Shown one piece after another: positions 5,128 through 20,000 of a stretch of DNA of 20,000 bases. Source of the stretch: an uncultured virus (IMG/VR IMGVR_UViG_3300032829_000007) (taxonomy: Duplodnaviria > Heunggongvirae > Uroviricota > Caudoviricetes); IMG/VR virus record IMGVR_UViG_3300032829_000007; one strand, 5' to 3'. Both the position numbers and the translations under genes were made by a program. Within the stretch, counting starts at the first letter, position 1; each line of letters starts with the position of its first letter. A model generated the notes under the pieces. The model did no database searches and was not told the origin of the DNA. It worked only from the letters and a program-made list of their open reading frames with translations.

Positions 5128-5810
5128 ATTATAAATTTCCTATAGTAAATTTTTTGCTATATAAAATTATTATATTTTCTTTTTAAAATTCCTTAAACTC
5201 AATAAACATAAATTCTTATTTTTAATATTATTAACTAAAAATTAAGTTTTACTTTCAATCTATAACTAAAATATATCATTTTACTTTTTCACTTTTAAAA
5301 ATCCCCTACAGAAATTTTTTTTGAACTTTCAATTTGAAAATTAATAAAATTTATGTTTTATAACATATACTAAGGTGATAAATATAATACAATGATAATG
5401 AATACATTATAAAATATTTTTAAAAAACAATGATATTTGTCATTGTTTATGATTATAATTTTTTATAAATTTGAATTTTGTAAATTGGCGAAATGGCTGA
5501 TTATTATAGATGGTGGGACAACATTTTTAATAAAAACCCTTATTTTTTCTATATGTCCAAAAAAGGCCAAAATTTTCACCAAATAGGATAACAAATTTTC
5601 TAAAAATTTATTGTGATTATAAAAACATATCAATTTTGAATGTACAAAAAATATTGAAAATTTTTAAACCTTCTAAAAAGCCCGTCATTTCAGTACATTT
5701 AAAGGCAAAGTAAAATATTTTACAAAGTGATTTAAATAACAAAGTACTTTGAAATACAAAGTTATTAAATATCAGTATAATAAAAAATTTTAATATATAA
5801 TGACAATATT

Positions 5811-9574: not shown

Positions 9575-9679
9575 ATGAAACGTACATTTGATTTAACAAT
9601 TCAGAAAGCAGAAGCAATGGTTTTAATAACTATTGTAATTGTATCAGCAATATTACTTGTTATAAACGGTAATGTATAA
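9575..9679 (+). CDS. small single-TM peptide (34 aa)
   Basis: MKRTFDLTIQKAEAMVLITIVIVSAILLVINGNV*, with a TTTTCAATTATG start context. Confidence 0.6.
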   Translation: MKRTFDLTIQKAEAMVLITIVIVSAILLVINGNV

Positions 9680-9767
9680 TAAAAACTTTAAAGGTTTCAA
9701 GTCCTTATAAATTGTGAGAATTGGCATATTTAAATTAATAATATGCCAATAAACAAACTAAAGTAAA

Positions 9768-9992
9768 ATGAAAAAAAATAAACATACTCCTAAATGTATT
9801 GTTGAAATTTTATTTAAAGTAAGTATTTTACCTTTAATAAAACAAAAATATGAATCTAATGGAGTAAAAAATTTTTCAGTTCGTACTATTGCATGGTATA
9901 ATTTTACTGATTCTCTTTGTAAAAATGGTAATATATCTAAAAATCATTATAATATTTGGACATTACCTGATTTTTGTCAAAAAAGTAAATAA
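9768..9992 (+). CDS. hypothetical protein, paralog of 10016-10240
   Basis: Shares ILP.IK...ESNG.K.F..R..AW..FTDSLCK.G.IS...YN.W.LP..C.KS.K with the next ORF. Confidence 0.75.
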   Translation: MKKNKHTPKCIVEILFKVSILPLIKQKYESNGVKNFSVRTIAWYNFTDSLCKNGNISKNHYNIWTLPDFCQKSK

Positions 9993-10015
9993 TAAATTAA
10001 TAAAGTAAAAGCATT

Positions 10016-10240
10016 ATGAAAACATCATTTTTAACTAAAAAGGCTGTTGAAAATTCTTTTAAATCGGAAATTCTGCCAGCAATTAAAGAAAGGCACGAAT
10101 CTAATGGTATTAAGGATTTTCCTGCACGTTCTGAAGCATGGAATTTTTATACTGATTCTCTTTGTAAAGATGGTTTAATATCCACAAACCAATATAATAA
10201 TTGGGGTTTGCCTAAATATTGTGAAAAATCAAATAAGTAA
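10016..10240 (+). CDS. hypothetical protein, paralog of 9768-9992
   Basis: Tandem paralog; both proteins are 74 aa. Confidence 0.8.
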   Translation: MKTSFLTKKAVENSFKSEILPAIKERHESNGIKDFPARSEAWNFYTDSLCKDGLISTNQYNNWGLPKYCEKSNK

Positions 10241-13788: not shown

Positions 13789-14232
13789 ATGTTCAATATA
13801 AAATTAACAAAAAGGCAAAAAGAAATATTAAATATATTAAATGAAGAAAAAGCATTTAATATAACTTCTGGTTATATTCCCTTTGGAATAGATTATAAAA
13901 TTTTTGAAAATTTAACAATTAAAGGTATATTAAATAATAAAAATGATTTATTTTGGATAAGACAAGAGAATGAAAAAGAAACAGGCATTTATTATTGCTT
14001 TATTGTATATGGACAAAATATATTAATTGATAATAAAAATTATTATTTTATTATATGTAAAGCAAATAAAAAATATCCATTTAAATATATTGATAAAGGA
14101 TTATTAAAACTTGCTAAATCTTTAAATATTACTCGTTATAAAATGCATTTTGATGGTTATGAATTAGAATCATTTGAAAATACTAAATTTCCTAAGTTTG
14201 AATTTAATGGAACTGAATTTATAAAAAAATGA
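13789..14232 (+). CDS. hypothetical protein, possible N-terminal winged-helix
   Basis: KLTKRQKEILNIL...FENLTIKGIL pattern. Confidence 0.6.
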   Translation: MFNIKLTKRQKEILNILNEEKAFNITSGYIPFGIDYKIFENLTIKGILNNKNDLFWIRQENEKETGIYYCFIVYGQNILIDNKNYYFIICKANKKYPFKYIDKGLLKLAKSLNITRYKMHFDGYELESFENTKFPKFEFNGTEFIKK

Positions 14233-14278
14233 AAGATATTATTATTTTGATTGTACAAAATTTTAAAACTTTTCAATT

Positions 14279-14770
14279 ATGTATAATAAATTTATTGATA
14301 TTGAAATAAAAACTTTAGAAGATGTTCAATGTTTTTTAAATAATATTGAATTTATTAATGAGGGTGGCTGTGGAATTGCAATGTTAGCAATGTACAGATG
14401 GTTAAAGAAAAATAAACAACTTAATAAAAGTACTTGTTTTTATTATTTATATAGTTCATGGAGTGAAAATAGATATTTAAATAATAAAGAAGTATTAAAA
14501 ACAAAAAATGGTAAACCAGATTGTTGTACTCATGCAATGTTATATCATAATGATTTATTTATTGATAGTCTAGGAAATTATAATTTTTCTATTGTATCGA
14601 ACGATTATAATTGGTTACAAAAAATAACTGATGAAAAATTTATAATTGATTCAATTAATAATTATAATTATAATACTTGGAATTCTGATTTTGAAAGAAA
14701 AAAGAATATTAAAATTATAGAAAAGGGTTTAAATATTGATTTATCTGATATATGTTTAAAATATAACTAA
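14279..14770 (+). CDS. hypothetical protein, possible papain/transglutaminase-like fold
   Basis: INEGGCGIAM...HAMLY...FIDSLG gives a Cys-His-Asp order typical of such folds (inference). Confidence 0.55.
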   Translation: MYNKFIDIEIKTLEDVQCFLNNIEFINEGGCGIAMLAMYRWLKKNKQLNKSTCFYYLYSSWSENRYLNNKEVLKTKNGKPDCCTHAMLYHNDLFIDSLGNYNFSIVSNDYNWLQKITDEKFIIDSINNYNYNTWNSDFERKKNIKIIEKGLNIDLSDICLKYN

Positions 14771-14779
14771 TAATTTATT

Positions 14780-14956
14780 ATGAAAAATCTTAATTTTAAA
14801 AATGATAATGTACAAAATAATATTGATGTTGATTCAATGGCTAATCATATTTTAAAACAAATTGAGGCTGCAAATAAAGTTGGAATAAAAACCTTTACTT
14901 ATACATCAATGGAGGAAGTTTTTGATGTTAAATCAGAATTTTTGGATATAAAATAA
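14780..14956 (+). CDS. small hypothetical protein (58 aa)
   Basis: MKNLNFKNDNVQ...SEFLDIK*, ATTATG start. Confidence 0.6.
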   Translation: MKNLNFKNDNVQNNIDVDSMANHILKQIEAANKVGIKTFTYTSMEEVFDVKSEFLDIK

Positions 14957-14990
14957 TATTATTGATAATTTATTATTGATAATTTATTAT
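14957..14990. repeat. short tandem repeat TATTATTGATAATT x2.4
   Basis: Direct 14-nt duplication seen in the sequence. Confidence 0.6.
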
Positions 14991-15015
14991 AACATTATAT
15001 AAAATTTATCGTATA
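14988..15015 (+). promoter_or_regulatory. ECF-type promoter (TATAAC-N16-CGTATA)
   Basis: Motif upstream of ATG 15041. Confidence 0.75.
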
Positions 15016-15040
15016 ATATAGTATAAAAAACAAATAAAAA

Positions 15041-15244
15041 ATGATAAAAAAAATTATAATTAAAATCGGTGATAATGTTGAGTTATTCAATGGAACTTTT
15101 GGGGTTGTTTCAGATATTGATTATGGTACTTATAAAATAAAAATATCTGGTGAACATAAATATCCTATATGGTTTCATATTCTTAACATTCATTATCTTA
15201 ATGGAATTGATTGCGAAAATAATTATATTGCATTATCTTTGTAG
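15041..15244 (+). CDS. hypothetical protein (KOW/SH3-like)
   Basis: IKIGDNVELFNGTFGVVSDI pattern. Confidence 0.65.
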   Translation: MIKKIIIKIGDNVELFNGTFGVVSDIDYGTYKIKISGEHKYPIWFHILNIHYLNGIDCENNYIALSL

Positions 15245-15253
15245 TATTATTAA

Positions 15254-15281
15254 TGTAACTTTTAATAAATTTTATCGTATA
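15254..15281 (+). promoter_or_regulatory. ECF-type promoter driving ORF 15309 and the mini-array
   Basis: TGTAAC-N16-CGTATA. Confidence 0.85.
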
Positions 15282-15308
15282 ATATTATAACATTTAAATA
15301 AAATAATT

Positions 15309-15698
15309 ATGGAAAAGATATTAAAAATTAATGTACCTGAGGGTTATGTTATTGACAATGAAAAATCGACATTTGAAAATATTGTTTTTAAATCTATTGA
15401 AAACAATAATACTGAAATACTTAAAGAAATGTCAGATTTTTTATTTAGTATGATTAACGGTACAACAATAAAAATCACTGGAGAAAAAGAAATAACTCAT
15501 TATAATAGTAATAGTGAATGGATTATTCAACAGGATTATAAAAATGGTTATCTTTATATAAATTATTATAAAATTTGGAAAGTTTTTGAAGAAAAATATA
15601 AACTTAAATATAATGAGATCAGAGATTTCATTAGATGTTGGGTAGAAACTAATACCAATTGGAATGGACTTACACCTGTTAAAAAGACACTTATATGA
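15309..15698 (+). CDS. array-associated hypothetical protein (C-terminus encoded by repeat 1 and spacer 1)
   Basis: 129-aa ORF with its own promoter. VETNTNWNGLTP comes from the repeat, and the TGA stop lies in spacer 1. Confidence 0.8.
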   Translation: MEKILKINVPEGYVIDNEKSTFENIVFKSIENNNTEILKEMSDFLFSMINGTTIKITGEKEITHYNSNSEWIIQQDYKNGYLYINYYKIWKVFEEKYKLKYNEIRDFIRCWVETNTNWNGLTPVKKTLI

Positions 15699-15873
15699 AC
15701 AAGTTTGGTAGAAACTAATACCAATTGGAATGGACTTACACCATTCCTGAGATTCACTCATACCATTGGTATGGTAGAAACTAATACCAATTGGAATGAA
15801 CTTACACCTTGCCAGGGCAATGAATGGCATATTAACTGGTAGAAATCAATACTAATTGAAATTAACATATATA
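15641..15873 (+). CRISPR. CRISPR-like mini-array: 4 repeats (last degenerate), 3 spacers, no cas genes in the window
   Basis: Repeat GGTAGAAACTAATACCAATTGGAATGGACTTACACC (36 nt) at 15641-15676, 15707-15742, 15773-15808 (1 mismatch) and 15838-15873 (degenerate). Unique spacers are 30, 30 and 29 nt. The + orientation is inferred from the promoter and the degenerate trailer. Confidence 0.88.
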
Positions 15874-15912
15874 AAAAATACATAAATTTGTTTAATCTTT
15901 AAATTTTAATAT

Positions 15913-16104
15913 ATGAATGAAAATTATTATGAAATTAATTTAATGAGTAATAAGCTTTTTTTAAAAAGTTATTACTCAAAAGTATTGCCTAATGTAAATG
16001 ATAAAATTAGTTTATCAGAGAATGAGGTTTTTTTTGTTGAGGAAAGATTATTACCTTCTACTGATTCAAATAGAATTGTTTTATTTGGAATAATATTAAA
16101 ATAA
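15913..16104 (+). CDS. hypothetical protein
   Basis: 63-aa ORF immediately downstream of the array. Confidence 0.65.
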   Translation: MNENYYEINLMSNKLFLKSYYSKVLPNVNDKISLSENEVFFVEERLLPSTDSNRIVLFGIILK

Positions 16105-16108
16105 ATAA

Positions 16109-16762
16109 ATTTCTGATAAAATTTTAGATTTTATAGCTAATTTAATATTTTATAAAGATACATCAGAATTAAATAAATTAAGTTTACAATGTTTTTTTAG
16201 TGATTTATCAAAATTACCACAAATTAAAAAATTTGCATATGATAAATTAATAGAAATATGTAAAGAACAAAAGATTTATTTTTTTGAGGTATCTGACAAT
16301 ATTATAAATAAAAATGTAACAAATGAAAATGAAAAAGCTGCCGGAAAATATACATATTTAAAAGGAAAAACAGTTATTGAAATGAATGAATCAACAAATA
16401 AACTTATTGAATTATCAAAAAAATGTAATAGAAATGTTGAATTAGATGATTATTTTCCCAGAATTTTAATAAATGTTAATAATGATGAAGATAAATATAA
16501 TGTAATGACATTAGCTCATGAATTAGGGCATCATTTTATAAATGTTAATGGTGAAGATCAAAGTGAAAATTTAGCAGATAAATTTATATATGATATATTT
16601 TTAGTTTATTTACCCGATTTTTTTATTGCAATTGAACATATTATGTTAGGTATAAAATTAAAAATAAATTATGGATTAGATATTGATTATAAAAAAATGT
16701 ATAATAGTTATCTTAAATTTAGAGAAGAACATCCCGAAATGAAACTACCAATATTAAATTAA
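16109..16762 (+). CDS. ImmA/IrrE-family metallopeptidase (start uncertain)
   Basis: TLAHELGHH...SENLADKF motif. The frame stays open 91 codons upstream of ATG 16382, back to ATT 16109. Confidence 0.75.
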   Translation: MSDKILDFIANLIFYKDTSELNKLSLQCFFSDLSKLPQIKKFAYDKLIEICKEQKIYFFEVSDNIINKNVTNENEKAAGKYTYLKGKTVIEMNESTNKLIELSKKCNRNVELDDYFPRILINVNNDEDKYNVMTLAHELGHHFINVNGEDQSENLADKFIYDIFLVYLPDFFIAIEHIMLGIKLKINYGLDIDYKKMYNSYLKFREEHPEMKLPILN

Positions 16763-16801
16763 AAATATTTTTATTTATTCTATTTATAAAGAAATAATAA
16801 T

Positions 16802-16882
16802 ATGAAAAAAATGTTTTTAAATTTAATTTGGGATAAGGAAAAAAAGCCTACTGATCCTCCACCTGACAAAAATAATATTTAA
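16802..16882 (+). CDS. small proline-rich peptide (26 aa)
   Basis: MKKMFLNLIWDKEKKPTDPPPDKNNI*, just before a terminator. Confidence 0.4.
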   Translation: MKKMFLNLIWDKEKKPTDPPPDKNNI

Positions 16883-16910
16883 TAAAATTAAATATTTATT
16901 TAAAATTATT

Positions 16911-16944
16911 AAAATCTCTATATAAATATATATAGAGATTTTTT
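16911..16944 (+). terminator. intrinsic terminator
   Basis: AAAATCTCTATATA-AATA-TATATAGAGATTTT followed by T. Confidence 0.75.
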
Positions 16945-16955
16945 ATTTATTATAA

Positions 16956-16983
16956 TGTAACCTTTACAAGTTTTTTTCGTATT
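16956..16983 (+). promoter_or_regulatory. ECF-type promoter (TGTAAC-N16-CGTATT)
   Basis: Motif match with no ORF before the next terminator. Confidence 0.8.
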
Positions 16984-16989
16984 TTATAA

Positions 16990-17094
16990 TAGTATTTTTT
17001 CAAATCTTGCGAATATATTAATCGTTTAACCAGAACGAATATATTCCATCATTTAAACCTTGCTAAAATTAATTTTTAATAGCAAGGTTTTTTT
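16990..17094 (+). ncRNA. candidate structured small RNA (~105 nt)
   Basis: Promoter, internal hairpin 17011-17046 and terminator 17055-17094, with no ATG ORF. The start position is estimated. Confidence 0.55.
17055..17094 (+). terminator. intrinsic terminator
   Basis: AAACCTTGCTA...TAGCAAGGTTT followed by TTTT. Confidence 0.8.
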
Positions 17095-17121
17095 GTAACA
17101 TTATTTAATAATGTACGTATA
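17094..17121 (+). promoter_or_regulatory. ECF-type promoter (TGTAAC-N16-CGTATA)
   Basis: Consensus match. It overlaps the track's start at 17111, so the true start is probably 17141. Confidence 0.85.
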
Positions 17122-17140
17122 TAATATAAAAAAAGTTATT

Positions 17141-17314
17141 ATGCTATTAATAGAAAATTTTAAAGAATGTTCACCAGATAAACATAAAAGACGTGACAAT
17201 AAATTTGGTATTACATGGTGTGTAAAATGTGGCCAATTATTTACAAAACCTTGTAATAATGAATTACAAGAAAATGACAAAATTACTTATATTTATCATA
17301 ATAAAAACTTATAA
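17141..17314 (+). CDS. putative zinc-finger protein
   Basis: C...H...WCVKCG. Start moved to ATTATG 17141. Confidence 0.65.
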   Translation: MLLIENFKECSPDKHKRRDNKFGITWCVKCGQLFTKPCNNELQENDKITYIYHNKNL

Positions 17315-17316
17315 TT

Positions 17317-17736
17317 ATGGACTTATTTTATATTGATAGGCAATTTGGACAGCCAATATTTATCGAAGTTGAAAAGGGTATTGTTCAAAAAGTATATAAC
17401 GAAAGTGAAAAGTTTAATAATAAAATGAATGAAGTGTATAAAGGTAAAGAAATTAGTTTTTTAAAAACTGATTTTGAAGAAAGAATGAAACCTTCATATT
17501 ATAATGTACGACCATTATCATTAACTTCAATACAACAAAATATTAATGCTATTGAAAGTCATATTAGTAATATTAATAAATTATTATATCTTTATGAACT
17601 GCATAAAGAAGAAAGTGATAATGTTATATTACTTAAAAGTGAAAGAATTAAATTAACTAAAGAATTAAGCGAATATCAAAATAAATTAAAACTTGAAATT
17701 AAGAGAATAAAAACTGAACATAATTATAATTGTTAA
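17317..17736 (+). CDS. hypothetical protein with C-terminal coiled coil
   Basis: 139-aa ORF. Confidence 0.75.
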   Translation: MDLFYIDRQFGQPIFIEVEKGIVQKVYNESEKFNNKMNEVYKGKEISFLKTDFEERMKPSYYNVRPLSLTSIQQNINAIESHISNINKLLYLYELHKEESDNVILLKSERIKLTKELSEYQNKLKLEIKRIKTEHNYNC

Positions 17737-17772
17737 TAATAAATTTTAAAGATCATTAAAAATATTATAATT

Positions 17773-17800
17773 TGAAACATTTATTATAATTTTACGTATA
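17773..17800 (+). promoter_or_regulatory. ECF-type promoter (TGAAAC-N16-CGTATA)
   Basis: Consensus match. Drives ORF 17821 and the spacer-targeted gene 18113. Confidence 0.85.
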
Positions 17801-17820
17801 TAATATAAAAACTTATAATC

Positions 17821-18096
17821 ATGGGAAAAGTAACAAATATTGATATAAATGTTAGAGTAAATGAACAATTTATATCTAAATTAAGAAAATATATTCCAGA
17901 AAATGAAACAGAAAATGATCATCAATTTGATGCAACACATGGAATTGTAGATGGATTTGTATATCATATTGTTGAACGAGGCGATTATAATTTTCAATTA
18001 TCAAATGGAATATCTTATTTAAAAAATGATCTTGAAGTTACATGGATTAGAATGTATGAAATAGATTATTCTAATGTAAATTTTTCTACACATTAA
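17821..18096 (+). CDS. hypothetical protein
   Basis: ORF after a promoter. Confidence 0.75.
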   Translation: MGKVTNIDINVRVNEQFISKLRKYIPENETENDHQFDATHGIVDGFVYHIVERGDYNFQLSNGISYLKNDLEVTWIRMYEIDYSNVNFSTH

Positions 18097-18112
18097 TATA
18101 TAAAAAAGACAA

Positions 18113-18622
18113 ATGAAAACTCAAAAATCTATATTAGGTAAAACAACAGGTAGTTTAATAAATTATGTTATGGGTAATAATAAAACTTTACCTGAAGTAG
18201 GAAAAGGCGCAACAATTTTATCATGGTCAGATAGACATGCTTATGAAGTAATGTCTATTAGTGAAGATGGAAAAAGAGTTATTATACAAAAATATTTATC
18301 TGAGCGTATTGATACCAATGGTATGAGTGAATCTCAGGAATATAAATATGAAAAATTAAATGGTTTTGATGAAGTTATTGTTTGGCGAAATAATGCATGG
18401 AGAAAAGAAATAATAGAAATAGTTTTTACAAAAGAATATGGTGAATATGTTAAAAATAATTTAAATGATTTTTGGAAAACTGAAGATTATAAATTATTAT
18501 ATCCTAATAATGAAATACAATTGCAACATGTTATTAAAGGTAAAACAAAACTTATAAAAAAATATCCTAAAGTAAATATTATTTGGGGCATAAAAGACGA
18601 ATATTATGATTATTCATTTTAA
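18113..18622 (+). CDS. conserved phage protein of unknown function; contains the protospacer for spacer 2
   Basis: PEVGKGATILSWSDRHAYEV...DEYYDYSF motifs resemble a widespread phage hypothetical family (recognised by eye). Confidence 0.8.
   Translation: MKTQKSILGKTTGSLINYVMGNNKTLPEVGKGATILSWSDRHAYEVMSISEDGKRVIIQKYLSERIDTNGMSESQEYKYEKLNGFDEVIVWRNNAWRKEIIEIVFTKEYGEYVKNNLNDFWKTEDYKLLYPNNEIQLQHVIKGKTKLIKKYPKVNIIWGIKDEYYDYSF
18312..18341 (+). other. protospacer: exact reverse complement of spacer 2 (15743-15772)
   Basis: ATACCAATGGTATGAGTGAATCTCAGGAAT, 30/30. The match ends exactly at the spacer boundaries. Confidence 0.95.
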
Positions 18623-18631
18623 ATAATAATA

Positions 18632-18876
18632 ATGTTTATTAAATTACAAAGAGGCCAATTTAAAAAAGTTGAAAATATTTGGGATTTAAGTATAGTAAAC
18701 GGACAACATGGTGAAGGTATTTATGCTTTTAAATATGGTAATAAATCAATGATTAATTATTATACTAAAAATGACGAAACATTATATACATTTATAACAA
18801 TCCACAATATAAAGCATTTATGTTTAAACACAATGGATATGGTATTCCTTCAAGTAAAGGAAATTTTTATTTTTAA
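18632..18876 (+). pseudogene. probably frameshifted or internally deleted gene
   Basis: The annotated frame becomes implausible after ~18795 and overruns promoter 18886. An alternative frame reads YNNPQYKAFMFKHNGYGIPSSKGNFYF* and stops before the promoter. Confidence 0.45.
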
Positions 18877-18885
18877 TATATTTTA

Positions 18886-18913
18886 TGTAACTTTATATAA
18901 TATTTTACGTATA
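18886..18913 (+). promoter_or_regulatory. ECF-type promoter (TGTAAC-N16-CGTATA)
   Basis: Consensus match upstream of ATG 18942. Confidence 0.85.
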
Positions 18914-18941
18914 TTATAATACAAACAAAAAATTATAAATT

Positions 18942-19118
18942 ATGAAAAAGATTTTATTTTTAATAAAAAGATATAAAGCTTTAAAATGGTGGAATAGTAT
19001 TACTATTGTTGAAAAAGCTTATAATTTATCTCGAATGAAAGATTTAGGTTTTTTAGAAAATAAAAAAGTTGAAACATTAACAACGAAAGATATTATTCAA
19101 TGTTATGAAACAATATAA
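18942..19118 (+). CDS. small hypothetical protein (58 aa)
   Basis: MKKILFLIKRYKALKWWNSI...CYETI*, after a promoter. Confidence 0.65.
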   Translation: MKKILFLIKRYKALKWWNSITIVEKAYNLSRMKDLGFLENKKVETLTTKDIIQCYETI

Positions 19119-19136
19119 ATAATAAAATTAAACATT

Positions 19137-19343
19137 ATGTCAAAATACTCAAACACTTTTGAATTAGTAAAAAAACATTGGCCAATAGCAAATCTTGATG
19201 AATCTGATTTATTTTTTATGAAGATTGTTGATGTTTGTTCTTGTGCTAATTATGATGAAAATAATATTGAAAAATTATGTAGTTTAATATCTGATTTTTA
19301 TGATGATGGATATCAAAAAGGTATTTATTCAGTGTTAATTTAA
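19137..19343 (+). CDS. hypothetical protein
   Basis: Packed ORF. Confidence 0.7.
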   Translation: MSKYSNTFELVKKHWPIANLDESDLFFMKIVDVCSCANYDENNIEKLCSLISDFYDDGYQKGIYSVLI

Positions 19344-19365
19344 ATTTTTTATAAATTTTATTATT

Positions 19366-19677
19366 ATGAAAAATATTGATATTAATCTATTAGAATCGAG
19401 AATAACAGCAATTAAAGCCGCACAAATTGCAGAATATAATAATGAATGGCAATTAGCAAAAGAATATTGGGAAAAAGCACCAAAATATAGTAATATAGAT
19501 AAAGAATTTGATAATAGCCAAATTAATGCAATTAATATGATTATTAATGCAAGTATTAAAGGAAATGAATACCGAAGTAGAATAAAAGAATATACTGAAC
19601 AATGGGAAAAAAGAAATTTAACAAATAAAAAATATTTTAGAATTTGTACTGAAATTTATAATGAAATTTATAAGTAA
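19366..19677 (+). CDS. hypothetical protein with a TPR-like helix pair
   Basis: AQIAEYNNEWQLAKEYWEKA. Confidence 0.65.
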   Translation: MKNIDINLLESRITAIKAAQIAEYNNEWQLAKEYWEKAPKYSNIDKEFDNSQINAINMIINASIKGNEYRSRIKEYTEQWEKRNLTNKKYFRICTEIYNEIYK

Positions 19678-19700
19678 CAAAATTTAAAAATATTTGTATA
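19673..19700 (+). promoter_or_regulatory. degenerate ECF-type promoter (AGTAAC-N16-TGTATA)
   Basis: Two mismatches, but correct spacing and intergenic position. Confidence 0.5.
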
Positions 19701-19772
19701 ATAAAAAGTAAATAATAAAATACAAATAAAAATGAAAAAAACATTATAAAAGCAAAAGTACAGTTAATAAAT

Positions 19773-19961
19773 ATGATGTGTGAAGAAGCTCGTTATTTTT
19801 TAAATAATAAAAAAGTTAAAGGTGATTATTTAAAATGTGGATGGATTGATTTTGTTGATGATGATTTAATCCAATATGAAATAGTTGGAGCTTATGTTGG
19901 TTGCGGAAGAAATACCGACAGAACAAATGGAAAAATAGTTTTAGTTAAAAAGGGATTATAA
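19773..19961 (+). CDS. hypothetical protein
   Basis: 62-aa ORF. Confidence 0.6.
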   Translation: MMCEEARYFLNNKKVKGDYLKCGWIDFVDDDLIQYEIVGAYVGCGRNTDRTNGKIVLVKKGL

Positions 19962-20000
19962 TTGATGATTTTAAAATGGAAAAGAATAAATTGTATTTCA

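Follow-up and report, generated by a model that had tools for sequence, protein, structure and literature searches.

CRISPR mini-arrays carried by viruses were reportedly linked to inter-virus conflicts by Medvedeva et al. in 2019. In the available part of a review (PMC11656645), viral mini-arrays serve inter-virus conflicts, their repeats are identical to host CRISPR repeats and their leader is non-coding. Here we describe an array at positions 15641-15873 of a 20,000-nucleotide (nt) stretch, the window, from an uncultured virus of the Caudoviricetes (IMG/VR record IMGVR_UViG_3300032829_000007). Its first repeat is the end of a conserved phage gene, open reading frame (ORF) 15309-15698, and its second spacer is an exact antisense match to another gene of the window. 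An earlier note on this DNA dealt with the spacer 2 match and missed the gene-embedded repeat 1. There is a real chance that an array fused to a gene is a new kind of system, and full-text literature searches (supplements excluded) returned no description of an array whose first repeat is a conserved gene end, nor the motif strings.

Guide RNAs of TnpB and IscB overlap the 3' end of their own gene; they are single guides, with a RuvC nuclease of about 400 amino acids (aa) and a transposon end. Type VI-B (Cas13b) arrays gain spacers in trans via type II-C Cas1-Cas2, and, in the accessible text of Hoikkala et al. 2021 (PMC8092290), their spacers are taken regardless of mRNA strand and self-targeting spacers are seen. 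RNA anti-CRISPRs are solitary non-coding viral repeats at least 90% identical to host repeats; the survey of Camara-Wilpert et al. 2023 masked confident ORFs and, as far as its available portion goes, reported none for type VI (PMC10651486). In the portion of PMC12045711 at hand, TIGR-Tas comprises phage arrays with two short spacers per unit and a Tas protein made of a Nop domain and a nuclease. AcrVIB1, of 13.6 kDa, is given as the only known Cas13b inhibitor in the accessible part of its report (10.1101/2024.11.17.623997).

The anatomy of the locus is firm: it is a gene-fused, growing CRISPR-type array that captures phage DNA. Four copies of a 36-nt repeat, starting at 15641, 15707, 15773 and 15838, are separated by spacers of 30, 30 and 29 nt, and the relevant features are as follows.

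15309-15698, plus strand: 129-aa ORF belonging to a large family of phage proteins, with conserved final residues encoded by repeat 1
15641-15676, plus strand: repeat 1, 36 nt, within ORF 15309-15698
15677-15706, plus strand: spacer 1, 30 nt, no target found
15707-15742, plus strand: repeat 2, 36/36
15743-15772, plus strand: spacer 2, 30 nt, antisense match to 18312-18341
15773-15808, plus strand: repeat 3, 35/36
15809-15837, plus strand: spacer 3, 29 nt, no target found
15838-15873, plus strand: degenerate terminal repeat, 26/36, decay increasing toward the 3' end
18113-18622, plus strand: target ORF of 169 aa, a conserved phage protein with 59 relatives
18312-18341, plus strand: protospacer, encoding D-T-N-G-M-S-E-S-Q-E

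Identical 36-nt direct repeats alternating with unique spacers of fixed length make up the generic CRISPR layout. A non-coding AT-rich leader is absent: a conserved ORF precedes repeat 1, which is itself coding. Repeat 1 encodes the conserved C-terminus ...W-V-E-T-N-T-N-W-N-G-L-T-P, and the tail of the ORF, with its TGA stop, falls in spacer 1. This C-terminal motif is common to all close homologues, several of which continue via 10 variable residues into a second, identical copy. The centre of the repeat at 15707-15742 is a perfect palindrome, CCAATTGG, with a near copy in the protospacer region (ATACCAATGG vs ATACCAATTGG) that is probably due to chance.

The fusion recurs throughout a family with 44 close homologues and, at E<=1e-3 in a library of 1.8 billion proteins, 347 clusters. 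Among 29 distinct loci of one subfamily (IMG/VR and JGI metagenomes), arrays start at the gene end in 23, in each of which the first repeat is formed by the final 36 nt of the conserved core (2-6 repeats, spacers of 29-31 nt); the other six have the gene end without an array. Under the same script criterion, fused arrays occur in 16 of 17 loci of a second, distant subfamily (motif ...EEHFK..G.TP). Read-through into a copy of the protein's own last 12 aa, at exactly +22 aa, occurs in 41 of 190 family proteins and in none of the shuffled controls, and some of these members have repeats without recognisable sequence likeness to the window repeat. Carriers span contigs of 13 kb to a complete 365-kb genome (G003), and gene-plus-array copies can be multiple: three in a 218-kb record, two in the complete 364.7-kb T4-like genome and four in a 213-kb record. 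A degenerate pattern built to cover the repeats of the window's subfamily recovered 12 loci from 2.9 million viral contigs, namely 11 fused loci and one cut by the contig end; in 185,579 species genomes it recovered one phage-like 7.5-kb contig, in a metagenome-assembled genome (MAG) of the Melioribacteraceae.

The family gene alone is common to all 28 neighbourhoods compared, and beyond it no conserved neighbour was found in them; an HNH gene occurs in four loci. A small HNH endonuclease gene begins inside or just after the last truncated repeat at L060 4388-4748 (the contig of L011) and also in L009 and L010, a placement that looks like insertion into the array end in these related phages.

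Spacer length is tightly held, with 41 of the first 50 unique spacers at 30 nt, five at 29 nt and four at 31 nt; 33 further spacers measure 27-30 nt. The sole spacer of P0063 is the last, distal one of three in L005, and L063 has one additional gene-proximal spacer relative to P0088, so that polarised gain at the gene-proximal end is seen in two pairs of relatives, although each could also be read as loss. P0060, whose protein is 98% identical to that of the window, has a different sequence after repeat 1. Terminal repeats decay in arrays of the family. In the six-repeat array of L006/L007, repeat 5 (5623-5658) carries the variant of the other two arrays in the same 218-kb phage, which suggests exchange between arrays within that phage.

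Variation among the repeats is coding-like, with an entropy by codon position of 0.54, 0.39 and 0.82 and Leu encoded as CTT, TTA or TTG. Despite this, the last five nucleotides of the repeat, ACACC, are invariant in 27 of 27, the synonymous third position of the Thr codon included, which points to constraint at the nucleotide level at the repeat-spacer junction in addition to selection on the protein. In-frame stops are present in 18 of 50 spacers (26.3 +/- 3.5 in shuffles), and lengths of 29 or 31 nt break the frame in 9 of 50; the array is therefore not simply a protein repeat.

The spacer 2 match holds up as the earlier note described it. The spacer at 15743-15772 (plus strand) is the exact reverse complement of 18312-18341, pairing at 30/30 and ending at the repeat borders, where 15742 (C) and 18342 (A), and 15773 (G) and 18311 (G), are unpaired. 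At up to three mismatches the sequence occurs twice in the window, as spacer and as target, which 0 of 200 dinucleotide shuffles reach. The protospacer flanks are 5' G and 3' ATA, again as claimed. Spacers 2 and 3 are present with 0 differences in a second sample (a 502-nt public-run unitig), and the protospacer is unaltered in a third (public-run unitigs). For spacers 1 and 3, which the earlier note had proposed to trace, nothing beyond chance matches of 16-18 nt was found in the window or in related loci, and their 22-nt cores had 0 matches in viral contigs; of the window's own contig, these searches and those for cas genes covered the window, with 57 kb lying outside it. No relative of window positions 14000-20000 was found among GenBank phages, the best match to the array query being no better than E 0.2.

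The earlier note had also taken the match to mean that spacers are acquired from phage sequence, and the family bears this out: of 83 unique spacers, 6 have a match on the contig that carries them, four of these matches being perfect, and for the other 77 none was found in the 1-1.3 Mb of sequence compared. The six are the following.

Window spacer 2: 30/30, to ORF 18113-18622, antisense
L011 spacer 1: 30/30, to a replication-organiser-like ORF 5.2 kb away, antisense
L011 spacer 2: 27/30 to itself and 28/30 in the relative L062, to a DUF1367 gene, antisense
L096 spacer 3: 30/30, to the array gene itself, sense
L104 spacer 2: 29/30, to a 94-aa ORF, sense, the ORF call being ambiguous
L104 spacer 4: 29/29, to an 811-aa ORF 87 kb away, antisense

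In L096 the copied piece of the array gene, at 9626-9655, is reproduced exactly and in sense, about 350 nt downstream, as a spacer of the array at 9841-10073. Relative to the local ORF, four of the self-matching spacers are antisense and two sense, one of the sense calls being that on the ambiguous 94-aa ORF. The pooled spacers have no strand skew (guanine-cytosine (GC) skew -0.01, vs +0.19 on the window coding strand). A protospacer-adjacent motif, AAT at +2 to +4, was present in 3/3 of the first protospacers, then in 0/3 of the next, and was dropped; no flank motif holds across all six. Spacers thus derive from phage DNA, that of the carrier and of its kin, captured in either orientation.

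The explanation we favour, with a probability of roughly 0.45, is that the gene-fused array captures DNA of the phage itself and of its kin, and that the guides are used by an effector acting in trans, mainly against related phages. The second half follows the way in which viral mini-arrays are described in the available part of PMC11656645. The last 36 nt of the conserved core of ORF 15309 would serve as the first, leader-proximal repeat, and new 30-nt spacers would be inserted directly behind it with duplication of the repeat, the gene acting as leader. The captured DNA would come from phage genomes in the infected cell, those of the carrier and its close kin, in either orientation; spacer 2 would be an example, taken from gene 18113-18622 where it is most conserved. 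The array would most likely be co-transcribed with ORF 15309 from a plus-strand promoter-like motif, and its RNA would feed a guide-using effector supplied in trans, with a main use against related phages and not in tuning the phage's own gene. Who inserts the spacers, whether guides are produced and what they do are matters that we infer. The self-match of spacer 2 would then reflect where spacers come from and not a regulatory purpose, and an effector that is absent, RNA-directed or blocked would explain why it is tolerated. As for the machinery, this explanation leaves two possibilities, Cas proteins that the host supplies in trans and a system that is autonomous and based on the protein of about 125 aa.

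The likeness to viral mini-arrays is considerable, these being short and Cas-less, with spacers that match viral genes, often of relatives, in the portion of PMC11656645 available. Correspondingly, window spacer 2 is matched at 27/30 in a distant homologue of its target, and L011 spacer 2 fits L062 better than it fits its own carrier. The differences are that the first repeat here is coding sequence, that repeats diverge along with the protein, that perfect self-matches occur, and that a host array with the same repeat was not found. Viral mini-arrays are thought to borrow the repeat and leader of the host; in the present loci a conserved phage gene serves as the leader and its last 12 codons are the repeat, a linkage that spans hundreds of protein clusters. 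It implies a small protein working with its own gene-encoded repeat, or a widespread means by which phages exploit or mislead host CRISPR adaptation, or both.

A number of results weigh against the favoured explanation. Cas1 (PF01867) was found in 0 of 5 phage records, the complete 364.7-kb genome included, and by the control in 7 of 14 genomes; Cas13b was likewise found in 0 of 5. Among the 66 ORFs of at least 340 aa in the complete genome G003 the sole match is TnpB-like and lies 14 kb from the arrays, and in the window the ORFs do not exceed 382 aa. The 185,579 species genomes, from which the true host may be missing, yielded no host array of this repeat pattern, and the exact repeat 22-mer had 0 matches in genome, metagenome and viral collections. 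The Melioribacteraceae MAG (G011), one contig of which (C108 = L077 = L066) has the fused array, carries four Cas1 genes and an unrelated 37-nt repeat, which makes it at best a weak hint at a host. Host Cas use would thus be argued purely from precedent, since no host array with this repeat was found, and the divergence of repeats along with the protein C-terminus is hard to reconcile with matching to a host repeat. A perfect antisense self-match should moreover be harmful if a Cas13b-like effector were active. No self match was seen for the 13 spacers of the 66%-complete 218-kb record or for the two of the complete genome, nor was one found in whole records for the arrays of L012, L009, L091, L097, G001 and G003. 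Linkage of array and target on one molecule found no support in Logan unitigs from four wetland runs, none of which spans the 2.5 kb, and terminators behind arrays (1 of 35, vs 2 on the control strand) are uninformative. The TnpB-like ORF of G003 lies at 217417-218865.

Two rivals are kept alive by the constant tie to a single small protein, by repeats that diverge together with that protein and by the missing host counterpart. The first, doubtful and yet the best surviving of the rivals, is an autonomous, Cas-independent module in which the protein of about 125 aa and its own gene-embedded repeat capture 30-nt pieces of phage DNA and express them as guides or decoys; the protein would bind or process the repeat RNA, or mark the insertion site. 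The family protein is the only gene in 28/28 loci, and a genome often has two or three paralogous copies of gene plus array. Members with completely diverged repeats still keep the 36+30 layout, Cas1 and Cas13b were not found in the phage records searched, and the species genomes searched yielded no host array with the repeat. The protein also matches no known family or fold: none in Pfam, PHROG, PADLOC or NCBIfam, nothing in Pfam at E<=0.01 except a sub-threshold ArgoMid match, no match of the family profile to PDB sequences at E<=0.1, and only viral hypothetical proteins in a protein atlas. Its structure is predicted by AlphaFold2 (AF2) with a predicted local distance difference test (pLDDT) score of 86, for which the best fold match, at Z 4.7 (homeodomain-like helices), does not stand out. 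Other points make the module hard to credit: a protein of 125 aa in which no catalytic motif can be recognised is unlikely to carry out both spacer integration and interference, no conserved neighbour could supply those functions, 6 of 29 loci have no array, and the repeat has no conserved RNA structure (fold z -0.35 and -0.39, with 0 consensus pairs across 21 repeats).

The locus resembles TnpB/IscB in that a guide-type element shares the sequence of the coding end, so that protein and RNA element co-evolve, and differs from it in having an expandable array and a tiny protein without nuclease signature. With TIGR-Tas, as far as PMC12045711 is available, it shares phage-borne short guide units adjoining a compact protein, the differences being that each 66-nt unit has one 30-nt spacer and that the protein, of 129 aa, has no Pfam match. 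An autonomous module, if true, would make up an adaptive array system of a new class, present in 1-4 copies in many phages, some above 200 kb, and its repeat would co-evolve with the protein through being the very sequence that codes for it.

The second rival, which we consider unlikely, is an anti-CRISPR decoy, in which the gene end mimics a host repeat or leader-repeat junction and acts as an adaptation sink or as a Cas-sequestering RNA, the spacers being harmless by-products. It would account for self-derived spacers in both orientations, for short arrays with decaying terminal repeats and no effector, and for repeat ends that are invariant around a free interior. Solitary viral repeats are known inhibitors, and surveys that mask ORFs, as that of PMC10651486 did in its available part, would overlook repeats embedded in genes. 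Viral CRISPR-type repeats behind a strong promoter (here a promoter-like motif) and the lack of cas genes are points in common with the RNA anti-CRISPRs of that survey, and the loci with a gene end only (6/29) amount to a solitary repeat; here, however, the repeat lies within an ORF, a host counterpart was not found and spacers are usual. AcrVIB1 is similar in size to the ORF 15309 family protein, on the partial account available and in a comparison made by size alone. The decoy has no host repeat that it could be seen to mimic, its likeness to VI-B repeats is non-significant, and it leaves unexplained why the repeat should be the coding sequence of a conserved protein.

The earlier note had favoured silencing at the RNA level or the targeting of related competing phages, and a guide from spacer 2 that silences the phage's own gene 18113-18622 through a Cas13b-type effector is the third rival, which we regard as improbable. 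Its geometry is sound: array and target are both on the plus strand, and a guide transcribed from the promoter-like motif, of which there are 12 copies on the plus strand and 0 on the minus strand, would be complementary to the mRNA, as that note stated. Four of the six self-matching spacers are antisense. The other two are sense, the array gene being the source of one of them; close relatives differ in their spacers, which is unlike a fixed regulator, and the pooled GC skew and the 15 spacers of the two largest genomes, which have no self match, speak against a dedicated antisense role in the same way. Activation of Cas13 leads to collateral RNA cleavage, which is expected to hurt the phage.

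The affinity to Cas13b, which the earlier note had suggested from the flanks, is plain in the layout and, in the repeat sequence, weak and short of significance. An array pattern of 36/30 with Cas13b-type end motifs, scanned in 401 sampled Bacteroidota genomes, matched three, and exactly two of these three have Cas13b (NF038190); that Cas13b was found in only 2 of the 401 sits poorly with the very broad phage family; one locus (G334) was confirmed as Cas13b and Csx27 beside a 36/30 array. The phage arrays share this layout with the verified locus. Compared with two VI-B repeats, 28 phage repeats reach z 3.5-4.7 against shuffles, vs 0.5-1.6 for two unrelated repeats, and, read in the phage gene's orientation, phage and VI-B repeats have end motifs and a 3'-half core in common. 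A profile of the 28 phage repeats, on the other hand, scores the VI-B repeats at 4-8 bits, partially and at E 0.4 or worse, and missed VI-B arrays in whole genomes (150 candidates scored per genome). With VI-B arrays, in the available text of PMC8092290, the phage arrays have in common 36-nt repeats, 30-nt spacers, no adaptation genes of their own, strand-blind capture and self-targeting; they differ in that the upstream motif TTTANNNNN reported there is absent from the protospacer flanks, in the missing cas13b and in having a gene as leader. The layout may be called VI-B-like, and VI-B membership is unproven.

An artefact is very improbable, be it two strains joined into a chimera during assembly or a mere tandem repeat of protein that plays no part as nucleic acid: the contig is a metagenome consensus with the array-target stretch unbridged by reads or contigs, the reading frame past the TGA in spacer 1 stays open as far as the terminal repeat and in-frame stops are fewer than in shuffles, but perfect self-matches occur on three other independent contigs, the stops and frame breaks described above are present with the window ORF itself stopping in spacer 1, and unique fixed-length spacers lie between identical repeats, two of them unchanged in a second sample.

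The perfect self-matches make tolerance of self-targeting directly testable, and the module, at about 0.6 kb, can be rebuilt. The protospacer lies inside the stretch R65-E80, which comprises 12 of the 26 invariant columns in a 4-sequence alignment of the target protein; in the homologue L002, whose gene is 60% identical overall, it is kept at 27/30, the best of 480 windows, and in the homologue L001 at 18/30. The target protein, predicted by AF2 with pLDDT 89.6, has no family match, and its best fold match, Z 4.6 (Tudor/SH3-like), does not stand out. Its identification as Cas2 was rejected, the profile match to two Cas2 chains (E 0.29-0.31) being non-significant and without backing from the fold search.

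Putative transcription signals in the window are the following.

15255-15281, plus strand: promoter-like motif GTAAC-N16-CGTATA, 27 nt before the start of ORF 15309, a putative promoter
1807, 3922, 5812, 7182, 9497, 10512, 11624, 15255, 16957, 17095, 18887 and 19674, plus strand: sites of the motif
17768-17812, plus strand: promoter-like repeat copy D2, 78% to the reference copy, before ORF 17821-18096 and the target ORF, a putative promoter

The motif in its general form, GTAAC-N15-17-[CT]GTAT[AT], stands before many plus-strand genes and looks like a phage-specific promoter class, to judge by its sequence and placement. The D2 and D3 copies of the promoter-like repeat family precede other plus-strand genes. 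A scan for sigma-70 promoters and terminators (56 sites vs 44.3 +/- 5.6 expected) was uninformative. The window is phage-like, at 18-25% GC with nearly all ORFs on the plus strand. TGA was considered as a sense codon and rejected, as 41 of 44 plus-strand ORFs end in TAA, TGG encodes Trp and TGA read-through adds little open frame.

Several elements away from the array deserve mention. In G003, positions 74729-77227 (L035:14729-17224) hold a UvrD-type helicase split by an intein that has Hint and LAGLIDADG homing-endonuclease domains. In the window, 9684-9765 (plus strand) is a full-length type-P3 twister ribozyme (59.1 bits vs a gathering threshold of 39.9, E 7e-11), located between small plus-strand ORFs and immediately ahead of ORF 9768-9992. 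An open frame of 217 codons at 16109-16762 (plus strand) has a HEXXH motif and matches the metalloprotease PHROG_87 (E 6e-6), with a weak M78 Pfam match; its earliest ATG is at 16382, which leaves its start uncertain. Finally, the 147-aa ORF at 13789-14232 (plus strand) has a weak PADLOC match to HEC-02B (E 1.6e-4, 19.7 bits).

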